Virus record (IMG/VR): IMGVR_UViG_2778261458_000009
Coordinates: 1 to 19,974 of that record
Source of the DNA: a virus
Lineage: Duplodnaviria > Heunggongvirae > Uroviricota > Caudoviricetes
Strand: one strand, 5' to 3'
DNA length: 19,974 bases
Numbering within the stretch: position 1 is the stretch's first letter; every line of letters starts with the position of its first letter. The translations under genes were made by a program, and so were the position numbers. Positions 2,173 through 10,355 of the stretch are shown here, one piece after another. The notes beneath the pieces were generated by a model. The model was given only the letters and a program-made list of their open reading frames with translations, searched no databases and was not told the DNA's origin.

Positions 2173-2645
2173 ACCTCAATCTCTCTGACCGTTCCGCCTG
2201 CTTCTTTGAATTTTGCAATCAGGCTGTCAGCCTTATGCTCGAACTGGCCATAACCAGCACCCGGCAGTGAAGCCCAGATATTGCTGCAACGGTCGATAGC
2301 CTGACGAATATCGCCGCGGTCAATCATCGGCAAAGCGCCACGCTCTTTAATCTGCTGCAATGCCACAGCGTCCTGACTTTTGGGAGAGAAGTCTTTCAGG
2401 CCAAGCTGCTTACGGTAAGCATCCCACCAACGGGAAAGAAGCTGGTAACGTCCGGCTGCTGTTGATTTGAGTTTGGGGTTTAGCGTGACAAGTTTGCGAG
2501 GGTGATCGGAGTAATCAGTGAACAGTTCGCCACCAACAATAACGTCATAACCGTGGTTACGTGTCGGTTGTCGCCCGTTATCCGTTCCTTCTGACCATGC
2601 CACCATATCAAGGAAAGCTTTACGCTGGGAATTTAGAGCCTGCAT
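2169..2645 (-). CDS. R: Endolysin, lambda R-type lytic transglycosylase (158 aa)
   Basis: Near-identical over its length to lambda R as recalled (…[47 protein letters not shown]…). Position between holin and Rz. Confidence 0.95.
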
Positions 2646-2648
2646 AAA

Positions 2649-2984
2649 TTACTCCTTCGAGCTACCAAATTTATTACCGATTACTCGCATTGCAGCCCCA
2701 CGAATAGCATCGACACCGATCAGCCCAACGCCACCACCAATGGCAACAGAAAGCGATTTAGGCCATCCGACATACTCAAGCGCGGATGCAAAAGTCAGCG
2801 TCAGAGCACCACAGAGCAAAATCTCGAGCGTTTTTCGCTTCCAGCCACCACCACCACCAAAATAAGCAATACGCAAACCAGCCATAACGATCGACATAAT
2901 CACTGCGCCAAGAGGCGTATCTCCACGCCACCAGCTCTGGAAAATCTCCAGCCAATCCGGCCATGTGTTTGGATTATGGGGCAT
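2649..2984 (-). CDS. Holin (111 aa, multi-TMD, not lambda S-like)
   Basis: Immediately upstream of the endolysin. Several hydrophobic segments and a charged C-terminus. Position-based call. Confidence 0.7.
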   Translation of the reverse strand: MPHNPNTWPDWLEIFQSWWRGDTPLGAVIMSIVMAGLRIAYFGGGGGWKRKTLEILLCGALTLTFASALEYVGWPKSLSVAIGGGVGLIGVDAIRGAAMRVIGNKFGSSKE

Positions 2985-3064
2985 GAATATCGTCTCTCAC
3001 CTCGTAAGTTATGCAGGCGACATATAAAAAGTTAAATAAAATAGTTGAATCAGATTGAGACATG

Positions 3065-3095
3065 GAAAAGGCTCGCCTGTGCGAGCCTTTTATTT
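3065..3095. terminator. GC-rich hairpin terminator (stem GGCTCGC / GCGAGCC, loop CTGT) flanked by A-run and T-run
   Basis: Perfect 7-bp stem at 3070-3087, TTTTATTT on the plus side and AAAAG on the other. About 70-100 nt downstream of the 429-aa cargo gene stop. Confidence 0.45.
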
Positions 3096-3128
3096 AGGTA
3101 GAGTGTTATAATAAAATCAAATTTACAT

Positions 3129-3153
3129 TATCTTCTTCCAAAAAGAAGATAAT
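3129..3153 (-). terminator. AT-rich hairpin (10-bp stem TTATCTTCTT / AAGAAGATAA, loop CCAAA) directly after the cargo operon stop
   Basis: Perfect inverted repeat read directly. On the minus-strand RNA it is followed by U-rich sequence. Confidence 0.3.
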
Positions 3154-3164
3154 CATCATATCCT

Positions 3165-4454
3165 TCAGAGCTCCTGATAAGCAGGTTGCAATTTTTCACA
3201 CCACTGCCTTAAAGTAGAAGCCCTTCTCTTTATTGTTTTGGAGCTGAGAGATATACATCTATCTTGCAAAAATCGTTCAGCTGTAAGTGGATCGAGCTCA
3301 GAAAGATTTTTAGCTTGACTCCAGGTAATCCACGCCCACCCGCAATGACTTGTTTCAAAACCGCGTGCAGCGATTCTTAGTCTCTTATCATAGTCAGATT
3401 CAACCAATTGCTGACCAAGAGCTGAAACAGAACCATTACTATTTAGTAACCCAAGTATTTTGGCCGCATGAATATAATACAATATATGTCGATTATCCAG
3501 ACCAGTACTAATCAGGTTCAGATGCTTCTCTTGCCATTTTAATTCAACTATCTTAAACACTTGTTCAATTAGGTTAGCCTGCGGTACCTGATAACTACTA
3601 ACAACTTGAGTAGCCATTTTAATCAATGTGCCAGAATAGAACTCAGCATCAGTTTTTCTGACTCTAAGAATAATATCATCAGTCACATTACTTTTTAGTT
3701 CAAAACATGAACTTGTCTCTATCACACTTTCAAATAAAGCAGATAACATCTGAGCATCGATATTATTCTGCTTAACAAAACCAATAATATCTTTTCTTGA
3801 TAGAATCAGATCATTTAGTTTTTTCAGCAATGGTTCAATTTGCTGCATTTTATCTGCCTTGAATGAAAGAACAAATGAACCAGGACGTCCAGATACTGGA
3901 CTCATTACATCTTTTTCATCAAATGCAGCTAATATTGATGAATAGAAATCATTAAAACACTCAAAAAGCTTCGAGACGCCTTTTAAAACCAAGGGTTCCA
4001 CAGAAGTTGCTGTTTTCTCCACATGAATCTCATGCGTAGAGAATTCTACCTCCTTTCCAATTTTACCATTAGGTAATACAGGAAGAACACTACTAATATA
4101 TAAGTTAGGTTCTGGAATTTTTATCTTCTCATTTAACTCAGAAACATTTATTTTTATTTCATCAACATGATTATCTTCATAGTAAATATTAAACTGATAG
4201 CAAAGCTTTTGTTCTTGATAAACTAAAACACTTCTAATATCAATTCTTTTACGCTCGAAGTGCTCCAACCTATCTTTTGAAATCGGTATGATAATCCATT
4301 TATCATAATCTTCTTCGTCGCCAATCCAATAGACAACAAACATGCTATTTATTTCATTAGACACAGAGAAAAGTTTTGGCTCTTCGAAGAACTCATAAAT
4401 TTTTTGCATATATAATGTGCCGAACACACTATCTTCCAAAAAAATATTGCTCAT
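3165..4454 (-). CDS. Hypothetical protein, cargo gene B (429 aa), no recognised domain
   Basis: ATG at 4452-4454 preceded by AAGAGAGGTGG. ATGA overlap with the upstream gene stop. AT-rich (roughly 30-35% GC by eye). Confidence 0.8.
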   Translation of the reverse strand: MSNIFLEDSVFGTLYMQKIYEFFEEPKLFSVSNEINSMFVVYWIGDEEDYDKWIIIPISKDRLEHFERKRIDIRSVLVYQEQKLCYQFNIYYEDNHVDEIKINVSELNEKIKIPEPNLYISSVLPVLPNGKIGKEVEFSTHEIHVEKTATSVEPLVLKGVSKLFECFNDFYSSILAAFDEKDVMSPVSGRPGSFVLSFKADKMQQIEPLLKKLNDLILSRKDIIGFVKQNNIDAQMLSALFESVIETSSCFELKSNVTDDIILRVRKTDAEFYSGTLIKMATQVVSSYQVPQANLIEQVFKIVELKWQEKHLNLISTGLDNRHILYYIHAAKILGLLNSNGSVSALGQQLVESDYDKRLRIAARGFETSHCGWAWITWSQAKNLSELDPLTAERFLQDRCISLSSKTIKRRASTLRQWCEKLQPAYQEL

Positions 4455-4891
4455 CTAACCACCTCTCTTATACAGGTGAATTTTTCATGAACTCGAGCAT
4501 CTTTACAAAGCCAAATGGTAAAATGAGTCGAATCAGGAGCTCCTGTTTTTAGCATTCTTCCATCCTGTGGATTCAACTCGCCTTTAGCAATAAACCTTTC
4601 ACCTATTCCTTCAGGAAATTTATTAAATACATTTACCAGTGATGTTTCGTCCATGAACATAGAAACACCATAGCAGCATTTCAATTGTAACCCTTGGAAC
4701 TTTTTCATTCTTTTTGGGTTTTCTTCTTTCATGTTTAAAAAACAAGCTTTCCCAGGTGGATTATTTCTGGCTAAGCGATAAAAAACCCCTTCAGCATCCA
4801 AGGACTCTTTTGGAGGAACATCTGCAGGAAAATAATCGGGAAAAATCTGTTGGGCAGAGTCTTCAAGAACCTGCTGTGCATTTTTAGTCAT
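4451..4891 (-). CDS. Hypothetical protein, cargo gene A (146 aa from the ATG at 4889-4891; the ORF track extends to a TTG at 4918)
   Basis: Translationally coupled to gene B (ATGA overlap). AT-rich. Start codon uncertain because no strong RBS precedes either candidate. Confidence 0.65.
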   Translation of the reverse strand: MTKNAQQVLEDSAQQIFPDYFPADVPPKESLDAEGVFYRLARNNPPGKACFLNMKEENPKRMKKFQGLQLKCCYGVSMFMDETSLVNVFNKFPEGIGERFIAKGELNPQDGRMLKTGAPDSTHFTIWLCKDARVHEKFTCIREVVR

Positions 4892-4918
4892 ACAATACGC
4901 TACCCAAGTAATTAACAA

Positions 4919-5486
4919 AAATCTGCCAATTTATTGGATATACACGTCCCAAATCCCTTGGCATCGTATTGAATATAACAACAAGCACATTAATCACATA
5001 TGCAATAAAGGCATAAAAAACACAACATATATAGCAAAAAGAAATCAAAAACAATATACGGGATGATGCGGATTTTTTTTATCTATATATAGTGGCTGGG
5101 CATAAGAATTGTTATAAAGTTGGCGTCCCTTGCTCCCATGTAATCATATGAAACACAGGATATAATTCCTGAAGGTAATCACATACTTCCCTAGATACAT
5201 AGATGAGAGACTAAAATAAAACCTACCGCCAAGAACTATGCCTTTTTCAACCAATCGTACTCTCTGCCCTGTCTAAAAGGCGGCCATTCAAAGCAAGTAC
5301 TTTTTTATGTTTATCAAGAAGCTACTAAGACTATTCAGAACTGATATTTGGATAACAAAATACCAACTTGATGGCGGGTTCTTGAAGATTCTCAACGGCA
5401 GACATACAAAGCCCATCGTTGAGAAAATCTTATCCATATTTTTTGAAAAATGCAAGCTTCATGTCGCTATCTTCGGCGAAAATCAC
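4919..5486 (-). promoter_or_regulatory. AT-rich intergenic region; expected location of the Q-dependent late promoter/qut site and of a promoter for the cargo operon
   Basis: 568 bp with no convincing ORF between the Q stop (5487) and the cargo gene start. Promoter elements not confidently placed. Confidence 0.3.
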
Positions 5487-6239
5487 TTATCTCGTCACCT
5501 TTCTCAATTGTGTTTCAGCATATGCTTCTTCCTGCCAGCACTTTGTTACTAGTTTATCAATTACGTCTGCATATCCTTTGTACCACTGATAATCAGTCAG
5601 GTCTGGAACCAGCTTCTGGACATGACGTCGTGCCAGTGTAGTCGGTAAACGGCTAAACCGGTTTCCATTGCAACGCCCACAAGTCTTATAAACAGGCGTG
5701 CCATGAAGCCGGGTTCTTTTTTCATCCAGGACAATACCTTTCCCCTTACACCCTCTGCACGCCGTGCTGACTTCTCCCTTGCCATGACAATGCTGACACA
5801 GTTCCTTCACCCACTCTTCTTTGATAACGGATTCCCCGCTTCTGGAATATTTCACCACTTCGCGCAATACATTATGAAATCCAGTACCAGCACAATGCTC
5901 ACAGCGAGCCTTACTTGCCGCAGACCTGGAATAATCAGCAAAGGCAAAATTCACAAGGTAAGGGATGATCTGTAACCGGGTTTCTTCACTCAATTTGTTC
6001 AATGTCTGGTTATCCAGTGCCATCGCGTAATTGAGCAGGCCTTCAATCGCAAACTGAGGATCCTGAACTCCAACTTTTGCCAGGAATAAGGCAAACCCAA
6101 GCGGTGCTTTCGACTGCACCATCCCCTGCGCAGCCATTACATCCGTAATTGTTAAACCACCCGAGCCTGTCGCCGGTGCGTCATCGCTCAATTTTGGAGA
6201 TTTTGGGGAGTAATATTTCGGTAAGGCTTCAAGGTTCAT
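5487..6239 (-). CDS. Late-gene antitermination protein Q-like (250 aa) with four CxxCxGxG zinc-finger repeats
   Basis: Position immediately upstream of the lysis module. Repeats CEHCAGTG, CQHCHGKG, CRGCKGKG, CGRCNGNR. Size and architecture recalled as similar to Qin-prophage Q homologs. RBS GGAG 8 nt upstream. Confidence 0.6.
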   Translation of the reverse strand: MNLEALPKYYSPKSPKLSDDAPATGSGGLTITDVMAAQGMVQSKAPLGFALFLAKVGVQDPQFAIEGLLNYAMALDNQTLNKLSEETRLQIIPYLVNFAFADYSRSAASKARCEHCAGTGFHNVLREVVKYSRSGESVIKEEWVKELCQHCHGKGEVSTACRGCKGKGIVLDEKRTRLHGTPVYKTCGRCNGNRFSRLPTTLARRHVQKLVPDLTDYQWYKGYADVIDKLVTKCWQEEAYAETQLRKVTR

Positions 6240-6252
6240 GCTCGTTCTCCAC

Positions 6253-6513
6253 TTACGCCAGTACGCCTATTGCCAGCGCACGATCGATAAAACGAAATAT
6301 CAGCTCCAGCTGGGAGCCATACTTCTCTTCAAATGCCACGGTATCCGCATGCAGCTCGTCGTGATGCTTTCTGCACAAAGGCAACACAAAGAGATCATGC
6401 GCTTTTGTCCCCATTCCACCCTGACCATGGCCTATCAGGTGGTGGGGATCATCAGCAGGCTTTCCACAACATGCACACGGCTGTGTCTTAACCCAGCGCG
6501 TGGTACTTTTCAT
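6253..6513 (-). CDS. Cys/His-rich zinc-binding protein (86 aa), probably the C-terminal part of a split DUF968-like prophage gene
   Basis: CACCGK…HH…PLCRKHHDELH motif. Overlaps the upstream ORF by 26 nt in another frame. Weak RBS. Confidence 0.55.
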   Translation of the reverse strand: MKSTTRWVKTQPCACCGKPADDPHHLIGHGQGGMGTKAHDLFVLPLCRKHHDELHADTVAFEEKYGSQLELIFRFIDRALAIGVLA

Positions 6514-7249
6514 TAACCCAGCGGCGACGTTTTGGGCGTAACATAAAAGACTCCGGCGACTCCGGCTCCACTTTCAGCGCCAGCACCTTTTTCGCCTTAT
6601 CCTGGATGATGCTGGTGGCAGGAACCGAAGGCACAAGGTCACTTTCCCGGGTGACAGACGGCACAACAGGCTTCGGTAATCTCAGTGCCTTACGGGCTGC
6701 ACTTTCCGGTAAGGCATCCGCCAGATCATTACGAATCAGCCACCAGCACAGTTCCGGCATTGTCACAACGTGACTGTCATCAAAACCGAGATCCCGACGC
6801 ACGACAGATAACACCCACCGGGCACAGTTATCCGTTGCCATTGATTCCAGCCGTTCCGTGAACTGATCGCGCAGCTGGTTATCGCAGTGCCAGCACAGAC
6901 GGATTGCGCCCGGCGCGTGTCGCATTGTGGTCATGTTCTCGCTGTGCCAGTCGGAATGAGGCCACTGGCAGCCTTTTTCACGAAGTAACCAGCTTTCAAG
7001 ACATTCCACCCCACCAGCACGACGGATCACTGTCTCATTGCGGAACACGGCCCGAACGGCAGGATCATCCGCCAGCGGTTGTGATGCCGCCGGAACGGCA
7101 CCACTGGCAAAAGATGAATAACGTTCCGGCTCAGGCTCCAGCAGGACACGCCCCTGCATAAACAGGGGCATCAGCTCTGAACCTGGTCTGAACAATACGA
7201 TCCCCATACGTGGGGCAATTTCAGGGGTCAGTAGTGCTCTCACGGTCAC
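6488..7249 (-). CDS. Hypothetical protein (253 aa), probably the N-terminal part of the split DUF968-like gene
   Basis: Long ORF tightly following the KilA-N gene (1-nt gap). Ends within an 11-bp direct repeat. Confidence 0.55.
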   Translation of the reverse strand: MTVRALLTPEIAPRMGIVLFRPGSELMPLFMQGRVLLEPEPERYSSFASGAVPAASQPLADDPAVRAVFRNETVIRRAGGVECLESWLLREKGCQWPHSDWHSENMTTMRHAPGAIRLCWHCDNQLRDQFTERLESMATDNCARWVLSVVRRDLGFDDSHVVTMPELCWWLIRNDLADALPESAARKALRLPKPVVPSVTRESDLVPSVPATSIIQDKAKKVLALKVEPESPESFMLRPKRRRWVNEKYHALG

Positions 7250-7250
7250 C

Positions 7251-8060
7251 TCAATGAACGGTATCGAGCAGCTTTAACAGCTCAGGGAATCGGGATTCGA
7301 AGAAATGCGGCTGCGTCTCGCGCGGATTTGCGGGACTGGTGATGTTCTTGCCGAACATGCAGCCTTTCGCTGTCAGCGACCAGAATTTTTTGATGTTGTT
7401 AATCGCGGTACGGCTGTATCGTTCGCGCTGCTCGACGATCCCCAGCTTCACCATCTGGTGATATGCCTGATTAGCCGTCAGGCGGATACCATACTGTTTC
7501 AGCAGTGCACTCAGTGACAGTGTCGGGCGACTTGAGCCATCGTGTGCATCAGCAGGGGCATCAATGGCATAGCGCGGTGCCAGATTCGGTAAGCCAACAG
7601 CCTCCTGGAGTTTCTGACAGGCACCAAGCACTGAAGAGTTAGACAGGTTTAATTCCCGGCGCATAAAGTCCAGCAGAATCACGCCAGCCTGCATCTTGTC
7701 AGCAGCCTGCCCGGATAATTTTTCCAGTGCGCTGGTTACCATATCGAAAGTACGGATCACCTTTAGATGGAATGACGGGCTGATCCACATTGCATAGGCA
7801 TACACCAGTTCTTTGCAGACATACGTTCCCCGTTCATTTCCCCCATGAATCACACTCACCGGGTCAACACCCAAATTCTGGGTGTTGGTCAATTCATGAA
7901 CAAGCTCAACAGTTTGTTGGCTGGAAAGAAACTTTCCTGGCTCCTTGGTTCTGGCATTTGCACCAGATGCTACTGCTGCGCGATGCAGATCGTTCAGGCT
8001 GTAACGCCCATAAGCATCACGACGAACTTCAATACCATCAATGACCATCAGATTATTCAT
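7251..8060 (-). CDS. KilA-N domain protein / antirepressor-like (269 aa)
   Basis: N-terminal segment …GKFLSSQQTVELVHEL…YVCKELVYAYAMWISPSFHLKVIRTFD… resembles the KilA-N signature. RBS AGGAG upstream. Confidence 0.7.
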   Translation of the reverse strand: MNNLMVIDGIEVRRDAYGRYSLNDLHRAAVASGANARTKEPGKFLSSQQTVELVHELTNTQNLGVDPVSVIHGGNERGTYVCKELVYAYAMWISPSFHLKVIRTFDMVTSALEKLSGQAADKMQAGVILLDFMRRELNLSNSSVLGACQKLQEAVGLPNLAPRYAIDAPADAHDGSSRPTLSLSALLKQYGIRLTANQAYHQMVKLGIVEQRERYSRTAINNIKKFWSLTAKGCMFGKNITSPANPRETQPHFFESRFPELLKLLDTVH

Positions 8061-8079
8061 ACTTCGTTTCTCCTCTTAA

Positions 8080-8469
8080 TCAGGCGGCTGCACCCGCCGG
8101 TTTCTCATACTTACTGATAGTGATCTCGACCTTCCCTTCCGGGATAACCGGTCCCCACTCCACCAGCATTCTTTTCACCTGACTGTCGTCTTCCCACACA
8201 CCCGCGTGGGTCAGGGCGTCAAACAGTGCCTTGTTATAGTTGTCCAGATCGCGGATCCGGTTATCCGGAGGAAACAACACGATCTCCACTGAAGCAGGTG
8301 CCGACGTTGGTTTCGGCAGACGACGTAACTGCTCAACTATTGCTGCGCACGCCGCGCTCTGGAATTTGCGCCCCGCCGCGCTTATCAGGCTTTTACCAGC
8401 AAACGCCCCTTTGTTAGGGTGTCGCCAGTACGTATTCACGCTGGGCGGGAAAGGAAGGATCAACTTCAT
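8080..8469 (-). CDS. rusA: Holliday-junction resolvase RusA (129 aa)
   Basis: …LPFPPSVNTYWRH…RIRDLDNYNKALFDALTHAGVWEDDSQV… matches the RusA family pattern as recalled. Confidence 0.85.
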   Translation of the reverse strand: MKLILPFPPSVNTYWRHPNKGAFAGKSLISAAGRKFQSAACAAIVEQLRRLPKPTSAPASVEIVLFPPDNRIRDLDNYNKALFDALTHAGVWEDDSQVKRMLVEWGPVIPEGKVEITISKYEKPAGAAA

Positions 8470-8792
8470 ACTTTCAGGCCCCTCTCATGTAACCAGTAGG
8501 CTGCACGCAGCCTGGCGTTTTCCTCACCGGCAAGCAGTGAGCGGATAATCCCGACCGCCTCGCTGTCGTCGTCCTTCACCGCGGTATGAAGCGTTATCCC
8601 CCGGGCCACGCCACGCTTTATCGTGATGACGCCTTTTTTCTCCAGTGCGCGAAGATGCTCCACCGCTGCATTCACCGAACGGTATCCCAGCATGGTTGCC
8701 ACCTCCTGATTGGTTGGCGGAAAGCCACGCTCTTTCTGATAAGAAATCAGCATATCCAGCACCTGCTGCTGGCATTGAGTTAACGTCGTCAT
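8466..8792 (-). CDS. LexA N-terminal DNA-binding-domain protein (108 aa, no peptidase domain)
   Basis: …LTQCQQQVLDMLISYQKERGFPPTNQEVATMLGYRSVNAAVEHLRALEKKGVITIKRGVARGITL… parallels the LexA N-terminus as recalled. ATGA overlaps with the Dam and RusA genes. Confidence 0.8.
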   Translation of the reverse strand: MTTLTQCQQQVLDMLISYQKERGFPPTNQEVATMLGYRSVNAAVEHLRALEKKGVITIKRGVARGITLHTAVKDDDSEAVGIIRSLLAGEENARLRAAYWLHERGLKV

Positions 8793-9442
8793 GCCGCCAT
8801 CTCCCTGACCAGTTTTTCCGCCTGCTGGCGAACCTGCGCCAGAAAGGCCTCACCACATGCCTCAAGTTCATCGCGCCCGATGTAGCTGATTGCCGGTCCC
8901 TTCCAGGTCTTGTCGAAAACAGCAATAGCACCAGCGAAGAAAGCGCCTGTCGGCACCTGCTTCTCGTCCTTCGGGATAAACCAGGCAGGCAGTTCAAAAC
9001 CAATACGCCCGCGAATAAAAGCAATATGGTCCGCATCTTCCGGCCACCACACTTCGCTGGTGGCAGCTTTGATCAGGAAAACATAGCGCCCGCCCTTATC
9101 ACGCATGGCACTGGCATGTTTCATGATGTAACGCATGCCGGTGATGTATTGCCCCTCATGCTGACTGGCGCGGCTGTATGGGGGATTACCAAAGGCAGCA
9201 CCTTTAAGCTCCGCAAGACGTTCTGACCAGTCATGCGCCAGCGCGTTGTCTTCCGCCGTGTAATACGCGGCACATTTGGCGTTATCACCGTCAGTGAACA
9301 GATCCAGAACAAACGGACCAAACAAGGTGTTAATTCCCCAGAAAATGTTGTCCGGCGTGCGCCACTGATCGCCCACTTCCTTCAGTTCATGGGCTGGTTT
9401 GTTCCGCAGTTCTACCAGCGCCTGGCAATATTTATTACTCAT
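8789..9442 (-). CDS. Phage DNA N6-adenine methyltransferase (Dam family, 217 aa)
   Basis: NPPY motif (AFGNPPYS). Position within the early-right operon. Confidence 0.8.
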   Translation of the reverse strand: MSNKYCQALVELRNKPAHELKEVGDQWRTPDNIFWGINTLFGPFVLDLFTDGDNAKCAAYYTAEDNALAHDWSERLAELKGAAFGNPPYSRASQHEGQYITGMRYIMKHASAMRDKGGRYVFLIKAATSEVWWPEDADHIAFIRGRIGFELPAWFIPKDEKQVPTGAFFAGAIAVFDKTWKGPAISYIGRDELEACGEAFLAQVRQQAEKLVREMAA

Positions 9443-9534
9443 TAAGCCCCCACGTAAAAAGCATCCGCAATGTCTCCGGAAGTACAGCCCGGATGGGCTT
9501 CAATGAATTTCTGAACTTCATTCAAAAGACTCAT
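9442..9534 (-). CDS. Small ORF (30 aa: MSLLNEVQKFIEAHPGCTSGDIADAFYVGA) translationally coupled between the O-like and Dam genes
   Basis: ATG 2 nt after the O-like stop (TGATCATGA). Its TAA overlaps the Dam ATG (TAATG). Hand-translated; below the ORF-track cutoff. Confidence 0.35.
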   Translation of the reverse strand: MSLLNEVQKFIEAHPGCTSGDIADAFYVGA

Positions 9535-9536
9535 GA

Positions 9537-10355
9537 TCACCCCCTGAATCCTGCCGGGATCTGGCTGTAGTCCACGTTGTCGTAACTGGCTTTGAAGTAC
9601 GGGTCCTCGCGTCTGGCTGCAGATACCGCAGGAACTTCCCAGGATTCTTCGAAATGACGATCCGGACCAAAGAACGTGACAGCCTGTTTCACAAATTGTG
9701 TACCGCTATTGCCCATCGCAGATACCCAGCCCGCGTAGCGTTTCACACCTTCCAGCATGGTTTCGGGGTTTACCCCCTCGTTCAAACGGGCTTTCCAGGC
9801 TTTGAAGGCTGCTGATTTTGAATTGCCACCAGCACGTTTGGGATATGCCAGCCATGCCTGCTCAAACTCCGGAGAGTATTCCGGTCGGTTTGAACGAACT
9901 CGCACAGACTCATCAGCAGATGCACCAACAGCTATTGGTTCATTGACTGATTCTTTGACTGGTTCAAAAGAGTGACTGGTTCTGGGTGAATCTCCTGCAC
10001 TACCCCCTGGTGCAACTCCTGCACTACCTGGTGAATTTGCTGCACCAGATAGTGAATTATTTGCACTACCCCCTAGTGAATCTCCTGCACCATCCAGATG
10101 AAGGAGATAGATATTACTTGAGTTACCTTTTTCACCTTTCCGGGTGACTTTTTTTACCAGCCCGGACTCACAAAGGGCCGCAATATGATTCATCACAGAA
10201 CGTTTGCTAATCTCGCACTGGTCAGCAATATGCTGGTAGCTGGGCCAGCACTCACCCTGATCGCTGGCATTATCAGCCAGCTTGATCAGAACCAGTTTTC
10301 GCAATGGATTACCCACTCGAATTTTCATCGCTTTAACCATCAGCTCCATACTCAT
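9537..10355 (-). CDS. Replication initiator, O-like (272 aa): N-terminal wHTH, Gly/Ala/Ser linker, conserved phage C-terminal domain
   Basis: N-terminal HTH-like segment, low-complexity linker encoded by tandem DNA repeats, position after cII/Rha as in lambdoid replication modules. Confidence 0.7.
   Translation of the reverse strand: MSMELMVKAMKIRVGNPLRKLVLIKLADNASDQGECWPSYQHIADQCEISKRSVMNHIAALCESGLVKKVTRKGEKGNSSNIYLLHLDGAGDSLGGSANNSLSGAANSPGSAGVAPGGSAGDSPRTSHSFEPVKESVNEPIAVGASADESVRVRSNRPEYSPEFEQAWLAYPKRAGGNSKSAAFKAWKARLNEGVNPETMLEGVKRYAGWVSAMGNSGTQFVKQAVTFFGPDRHFEESWEVPAVSAARREDPYFKASYDNVDYSQIPAGFRG
9985..10095. repeat. Five tandem ~21-24 bp imperfect direct repeats (approx. GTGAATCTCCTGCACTACCCCCT) inside the O-like gene, followed by an AT-rich stretch; candidate origin iterons
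   Basis: Repeats read directly at 9985-10008, 10009-10029, 10030-10051, 10052-10074 and 10075-10095. Lambda ori iterons likewise lie within gene O. Confidence 0.5.

Follow-up and report, generated by a model that had tools for sequence, protein, structure and literature searches.

A ydfU-like DUF968 gene of an Escherichia coli lambdoid prophage, probably split into two overlapping reading frames by one extra nucleotide

Introduction

Proteins of the DUF968 family combine an Orf-like DNA-binding part with an HNH zinc-finger nuclease (PMC4118853). Together with YbcO/DUF1364 they make up group 7 of the His-Me finger proteins, and their genes are typically flanked by rusA and Q. Such a rusA/Q neighbourhood, in the nin region of lambdoid phages, has been described for YdfU-type proteins, and a role in recombination or repair of phage DNA has been put forward for them as a hypothesis (PMC5714182). 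Neither of these two papers reports a biochemical characterisation of any YdfU-type protein. YbcO of the DLP12 prophage (DUF1364, PDB 3g27) is a stand-alone His-Me finger that clusters with DUF968 (PMC5714182).

The 'HNH endonuclease' of phage mEp460 (NC_019716.1) belongs to PF06147, has a C-terminal His-Me finger and is encoded by a single intact ORF. YdfU of the E. coli K-12 Qin prophage, which we take to be 349 aa long, likewise belongs to PF06147 and has a C-terminal His-Me finger like that of the gene studied here; it is also a single intact ORF but represents a more distant allele. PdcB of phage P1 (YP_006573.1) is a distant homolog, intact and situated in another genome context. The closest relative is an intact E. 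coli DUF968 protein of 329 aa (EFF1741366.1; also WP_021519679.1, strain S1-JOR-02-A), whose gene shares with the present locus the order Dam, LexA-like, RusA, KilA-N, DUF968 and Q.

Here we analysed a stretch of 19,974 nt from a virus of the Caudoviricetes (IMG/VR record IMGVR_UViG_2778261458_000009), referred to below as the window. A sequence-only reading of it had pointed out two overlapping ORFs that meet at an 11-bp direct repeat, had tentatively assigned them to DUF968 and had suggested either a pseudogene created by a 25-bp insertion or slippage event or a genuine two-protein arrangement. The locus was compared with its intact relatives by nucleotide and profile searches.

Results

Prophage context of the locus

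The gene lies on the minus strand, with a Q-type antitermination gene (5487..6239, minus strand; Pfam Antiterm, E 4.3e-54) immediately downstream, a KilA-N domain gene (7251..8060, minus strand) immediately upstream and rusA (8080..8469, minus strand) beyond the latter. The order RusA, KilA-N, DUF968, Q corresponds to the nin region of lambdoid phages, between the replication genes and Q and beside rusA, and the same order was found in RefSeq records and in other assemblies. The rest of the window is also that of a lambdoid prophage, including an integrase-side end, CII-like, Rha/Ash, a replication initiator, Dam, LexA-like, a holin and Rz.

Three other features of the window were recorded. 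At 3165-4918 (minus strand), between the Q antiterminator and the holin, lies a low-GC (33-37%) cassette of two genes, encoding 155 aa and 429 aa, the latter with DUF6575/DUF7226. It gave weak PADLOC matches to PD-T4-10_A (E 3.4e-10) and PD-T4-10_B (E 1.7e-07), is also present in the closest relatives and is a candidate anti-phage defence moron in a late-promoter-proximal slot. At 9986-10090, inside a 272-aa HTH_36/DnaD_N replication-initiator-like gene (9537..10355, minus strand), degenerate direct repeats of about 21-24 nt (GTGAATCTCCTGCACTACC...) were found, including a 13-nt exact repeat at 9992/10016; they look like lambdoid origin iterons embedded in an O-like gene. Within the KilA-N gene, at 7853-7987, the identity to the closest relatives breaks, being 99.7% at 2253-7853 and about 97% at 7987-9457, and the KilA-N protein has 269 aa here against 265 aa in those relatives. 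Judged by this change of identity, 7853-7987 is a recombination junction typical of lambdoid mosaicism.

Two reading frames share one DUF968 domain

The minus strand contains an ORF of 253 aa with a GTG start (6488..7249, taken at its mechanically longest extent) and an ORF of 86 aa with an ATG start (6253..6513), which share 26 nt (6488-6513) but are read in different frames; what the sequence-only reading had said of their position and arrangement was reproduced. Two in-frame GTG codons, at 7243 and 7249, are start candidates for the DUF968 gene. GTG 7243 is preceded by a GAGG Shine-Dalgarno sequence with a predicted pairing of -6.9 kcal/mol, compared with -1.5 for GTG 7249, and homologs in RefSeq are annotated with the start equivalent to GTG 7243. 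For these two reasons GTG 7243 is the likelier start of the upstream ORF. With this start, the whole frameshifted ydfU-like (DUF968) gene occupies 6253..7243 (minus strand) and has 991 nt, whereas intact alleles have 990 nt (329 codons and a stop).

The upstream fragment (6488..7243, minus strand) then encodes 251 aa (253 aa if GTG 7249 is used), comprising the N-terminal Cys/His-rich region and the first half of DUF968. It ends with ...RRRWVNEKY, followed by the out-of-frame residues H-A-L-G and the stop. The downstream 86-aa ORF (6253..6513, minus strand) holds the C-terminal HNH / His-Me finger half of DUF968; it begins with an out-of-frame MKST start and continues with TRWVKTQPCACCGK...HH...CRKHHDELH.

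Against Pfam PF06147 (gathering score 27.8 bits), the upstream ORF scored 101.4 bits (E 7.2e-29), its residues 162-250 corresponding to profile positions 2-93, while the downstream ORF scored 152.1 bits (E 1.9e-44), its residues 5-83 corresponding to positions 93-171. Both ORFs and the protein obtained after a 1-nt repair thus exceed the gathering score, and the formerly tentative DUF968 assignment is now solid. In the PHROG family phrog_96 ('HNH endonuclease', 334 positions), residues 1-248 of the first ORF cover positions 1-253 and the second ORF covers 253-334; further matches were obtained with the HNH endonuclease families 131, 7370 and 22514. Since the fragments meet at Pfam position 93 and at phrog_96 position 253, no profile segment is missing or duplicated between them. 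The DUF968 domain of the window is split at position 93 across two ORFs in different frames, whereas in the homologs that were fetched and translated it is continuous. Judged from these profile matches, the two ORFs are halves of one DUF968/YdfU gene. The full-length protein is a putative recombination or repair nuclease.

The downstream ORF also matched Pfam HNHc_6 with 30.3 bits (cut-off 26.6), and its HNH module, with the Zn-binding CxxC...CxxH and the catalytic His, was read as CACCGKPADDPHHLIGH...LCRKHHDELH. Neither fragment had a match in NCBIfam or PADLOC. A PDB sequence search with the single protein and with a 9-sequence profile returned insignificant zinc-finger matches only and no link to YbcO 3g27, and an AlphaFold2 single-sequence model of the 86-aa ORF (pLDDT 53, pTM 0.31) was of too low quality to judge a beta-beta-alpha-metal fold by structural comparison.

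The N-terminal half outside the Pfam domain (window 6900-7000, residues about 90-125) has invariant residues of its own. C92, Q93, C117, W118, D121, N122 and R125 (CQ...LCWHCDNxLR) were kept across homologs down to P1 PdcB. This pattern may be a second metal-binding or nuclease-like motif, which the 251-aa fragment would retain.

The frame break is one extra C

Alignment of the junction to two RefSeq E. coli homologs required one single-base gap, the window reading GTACCACGCG against GTA-CACGCG. The lesion is a +1-nt insertion at 6502..6503 (minus strand), where the coding strand has CC (plus strand GG) and intact alleles have a single C, changing GTACACG into GTACCACG. A megablast search with 6253-7249 against 5,426 complete E. 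coli genomes matched 3,734 records, and in the top matches the 997-nt query corresponded to 996 nt in an intact gene annotated as 'DUF968 domain-containing protein'. The top matches among phage records (n=73) likewise aligned 996 nt with the 997-nt query.

After removal of one C, the gene is identical at 990/990 bases to that of four other E. coli assemblies (GCA_013984115.1, GCA_022887875.1, SRR24155106 and SRR18663857), and its translation is on record as the intact 329-aa E. coli protein mentioned above, from whose gene the window differs by the extra C that yields the 251-aa and 86-aa ORFs. An intact allele that differs by nothing except the indel marks this gene as a probable recent frameshift pseudogene. 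The repaired protein is 99.1% identical to the mEp460 protein. Apart from the extra C, no indel separates the window from a further relative (L001) over 4,057 nt, and none other was present in window 2253-7853 (5,601 nt; 99.75% identity to L024, within the L023-L026 group of four sequences given above). Read against these alleles, the gene is split by a single extra C. The pseudogene suggested earlier, one DUF968/YdfU-type gene broken into two overlapping ORFs by a frameshift, was thereby upheld; continuity across the junction, which had been proposed as a check, proved exact by both Blast and HMM.

The 11-bp direct repeat in intact homologs

Two copies of the 11-mer TTAACCCAGCG, and no more, are present in the window; they lie at 6488-6498 and 6513-6523, with a spacing of 25 nt, as had been reported from the sequence. 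On the coding strand, the first copy of CGCTGGGTTAA (6513..6523, minus strand) encodes the R-W-V-N of the conserved ...RRRWVNEKY... and is present in intact homologs. The second copy (6488..6498, minus strand) encodes R-W-V-K in intact alleles, 24 nt downstream and in frame; in the window its TAA is the stop codon of the upstream fragment. Translation agrees with the earlier statement that the upstream frame reads the first copy as R-W-V-N and the downstream frame reads the second as R-W-V-K.

The sequence-only reading had suggested a 25-bp insertion or slippage event. On such a model the 11-bp repeat would delimit the added segment, and the ancestral gene would have had one repeat copy and about 321 aa. 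The arithmetic behind the suggestion is right, and it is all that speaks for it: removal of 25 nt does restore an ORF of about 320 aa, namely 321 aa from GTG 7243. The frame returns because 25 nt equals the 24-nt spacing of intact genes with one inserted base added. In intact homologs both repeat copies are present with their spacer, 24 nt apart and in the same frame, where a repeat-flanked insertion would leave homologs with one copy and no spacer; the conserved segment across both copies encodes ...RRRWVNEKYTRWVKTQPC..., and the intact E. coli product reads ...PKRRRWVNEKYTRWVKTQPCACCGK... within its 329 aa. The exact parent allele, moreover, differs from the window by 1 nt, not by 25.

Repair by the 25-nt deletion gave a protein of 321 aa with a DUF968 score of 238.5 bits, compared with 269.9 bits (profile 2-171) for the 329 aa obtained by the 1-nt repair, a loss of 31 bits of Pfam score. 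The deletion also takes away 8 residues that no homolog lacks, not even the distant P1 PdcB. This was seen in a junction alignment with homologs from Klebsiella, Yersinia, Providencia and Vibrio phages and P1 PdcB, at 68% down to 27% identity, in which all genes are uninterrupted. With nine homologs aligned there was no gap in the 8-residue interval, and the consensus was RPKRxRWxxEKYTRWVKSQPC. P1 PdcB, at 27% identity, aligned over its full length, including the junction segment and the Cys/His motifs. Given this, a 25-bp origin of the frame break is scarcely credible, and the one-nucleotide insertion is preferred.

The repeat itself is not remarkable. In block shuffles of the 20-kb window, 0.35 pairs of an 11-nt direct repeat within 50 nt were expected and at least one occurred in 21% of the shuffles. 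Further out among the homologs the repeat erodes at the nucleotide level, but the spacing of the peptide is kept, so the DNA repeat is a by-product of coding and not a functional or mutational element. From its behaviour in the alignments, it is a reflection of the repeated R-W-V peptide motif and not an insertion scar.

Mutation or sequencing error

The frameshifted allele was searched for in large collections. No 100% match to the 91-nt junction was present in the 5,426 complete E. coli genomes, the best matches being 90/91 with a gap; an exact 36-mer scan of GTDB representative genomes gave no match, and none was found in IMG/VR. A degenerate 21-mer matched GTDB eight times, all in unrelated taxa (Chloroflexia, Rheinheimera, candidate phyla), and these matches were taken as chance. 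The other short members of the protein cluster of the 86-aa ORF that were examined are in-frame partial sequences cut at contig ends (...NEKYTRWVKTQ...), and among the cluster members examined the MKSTT start belongs to the protein of the window only.

This absence is what would be expected if the extra C were a sequencing or assembly error and the gene were intact in the organism. The same is true of the 86-aa product, which is on record from one contig only, and of the fact that without the extra C the gene is a circulating intact allele base for base. The other records point to a real base. The extra C is present in the source assembly (GCA_002485785.1, contig NNVQ01000060.1), whose contig was recorded in 3 samples, and the 251-aa product was found on four contigs. 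One of these four is in the Logan assembly of SRR6728001, which was built separately and is identical to the window over 3,874/3,874 nt, extra C included, although it possibly derives from the same isolate as GCA_002485785.1. The site is a dinucleotide and not a long homopolymer, and the assembly is not prone to indels, as 5.6 kb of aligned sequence contain none besides this C.

Because the extra C recurs in the source assembly and in the separately built assembly, it is very probably a genuine, recent, clone-restricted E. coli mutation. Because the allele is private and SRR6728001 may not be independent of GCA_002485785.1, an error in one read set keeps a small share of the probability, and we regard an artefact as unlikely.

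Two products or recoding as improbable alternatives

The other possibility raised by the sequence-only reading, a genuine two-protein arrangement, was not borne out: the homologs that were fetched and read through the junction are single continuous ORFs. In its fuller form this explanation would have the 86-aa HNH part made as a YbcO-like protein by re-initiation or coupling, or the full-length protein made by programmed +1 frameshifting. Several features are in its favour. The break is close to a domain boundary, directly ahead of the HNH module's first CxxC, and stand-alone relatives of the nuclease domain exist in YbcO/DUF1364 (PMC5714182). In addition, the stop of the upstream ORF comes 22 nt after the ATG at 6513, so terminating ribosomes would pass over this ATG; re-initiation at the 86-aa ORF is conceivable, though no more than that.

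The junction is, however, not conserved. Neither in the complete E. coli genomes, the GTDB representatives and IMG/VR nor among the distant homologs fetched was an allele with the extra C or a split at this place found. The Shine-Dalgarno pairing of the 86-aa ORF is weak and badly spaced (-3.1 kcal/mol, 2 nt from the ATG), compared with -6.4 to -9.1 for neighbouring genes. Inspection of the 26-nt overlap revealed no known +1 slippery motif; its A-rich GAA-AAG would rather promote slippage by -1, opposite to what is needed. Programmed frameshifting was accordingly rejected. Finally, the allele is otherwise nucleotide-identical to an intact one, which leaves no time for the selection of a new arrangement. 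A functional split or recoding is therefore very improbable, and equally so that this allele expresses a 251-aa nuclease-less Orf-like DNA-binding protein together with a re-initiated 86-aa YbcO-like His-Me nuclease. If expressed, the 86-aa ORF would resemble YbcO; no DUF1364 Pfam match was obtained, and the likeness to YbcO is a literature-based one only.

Partial copies in other phage records

In Vibrio phage VPBES (PV171465.1, 1495-2079; 'HNH endonuclease'), the annotation of a YdfU-like gene covers no more than its N-terminal ~194 aa, and a second matching place lies elsewhere in the record; this is possibly another disrupted or rearranged copy. Fragment-sized PHROGs were also seen, phrog_11007 covering the first 133 aa only and phrog_23141 the last 71 aa only. 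Taken together with VPBES, these suggest that broken or mis-called copies may recur in phage annotations.

Discussion

The best explanation of the locus, and one we hold with considerable confidence, is a single ydfU-type gene of a lambdoid prophage that carries a one-nucleotide insertion. By this account, a ydfU-type gene between rusA/kilA-N and Q, with a C-terminal HNH / His-Me finger domain, would have gained an extra C at 6502/6503. The insertion would have fallen within the 24-nt spacer between the natural in-frame CGCTGGGTTAA copies, whose product is the conserved peptide RWVNEKYTRWVK. Ribosomes that begin at the normal start would change frame after ...NEKY and stop four codons later at the TAA in the second repeat copy, giving a 251-aa product that lacks the nuclease domain. 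The HNH domain would be left only as the 86-aa ORF at a fortuitous ATG with a poor ribosome-binding site.

The alignments and profiles show the lesion itself, the homologs as single ORFs and the domains held by each piece; we infer that the full-length function is lost in this allele. The frameshift precedes the HNH module's first CxxC by 7-8 codons and, the break being near a domain boundary, both pieces might still fold. Should the improbable two-product reading be true after all, the allele would catch a phage recombination gene in the act of domain fission. On the preferred reading of a one-base frameshift, the case is ordinary pseudogenisation in a well-known and very common prophage gene family.

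Two cautions follow for the reading of similar loci. Short direct repeats on either side of a frame break may simply belong to the gene in its intact form, and repair by deletion of the interval can restore an ORF by arithmetic coincidence, here 25 = 24 + 1.

In conclusion, the proper annotation for the two ORFs is a single frameshifted ydfU-like pseudogene in place of two genes, and the finding has little importance beyond annotation. If the mutation is real, the clone would have a YdfU-type protein whose HNH domain has been knocked out naturally, and it would offer a ready-made allele for probing the role of this very common putative prophage nuclease.
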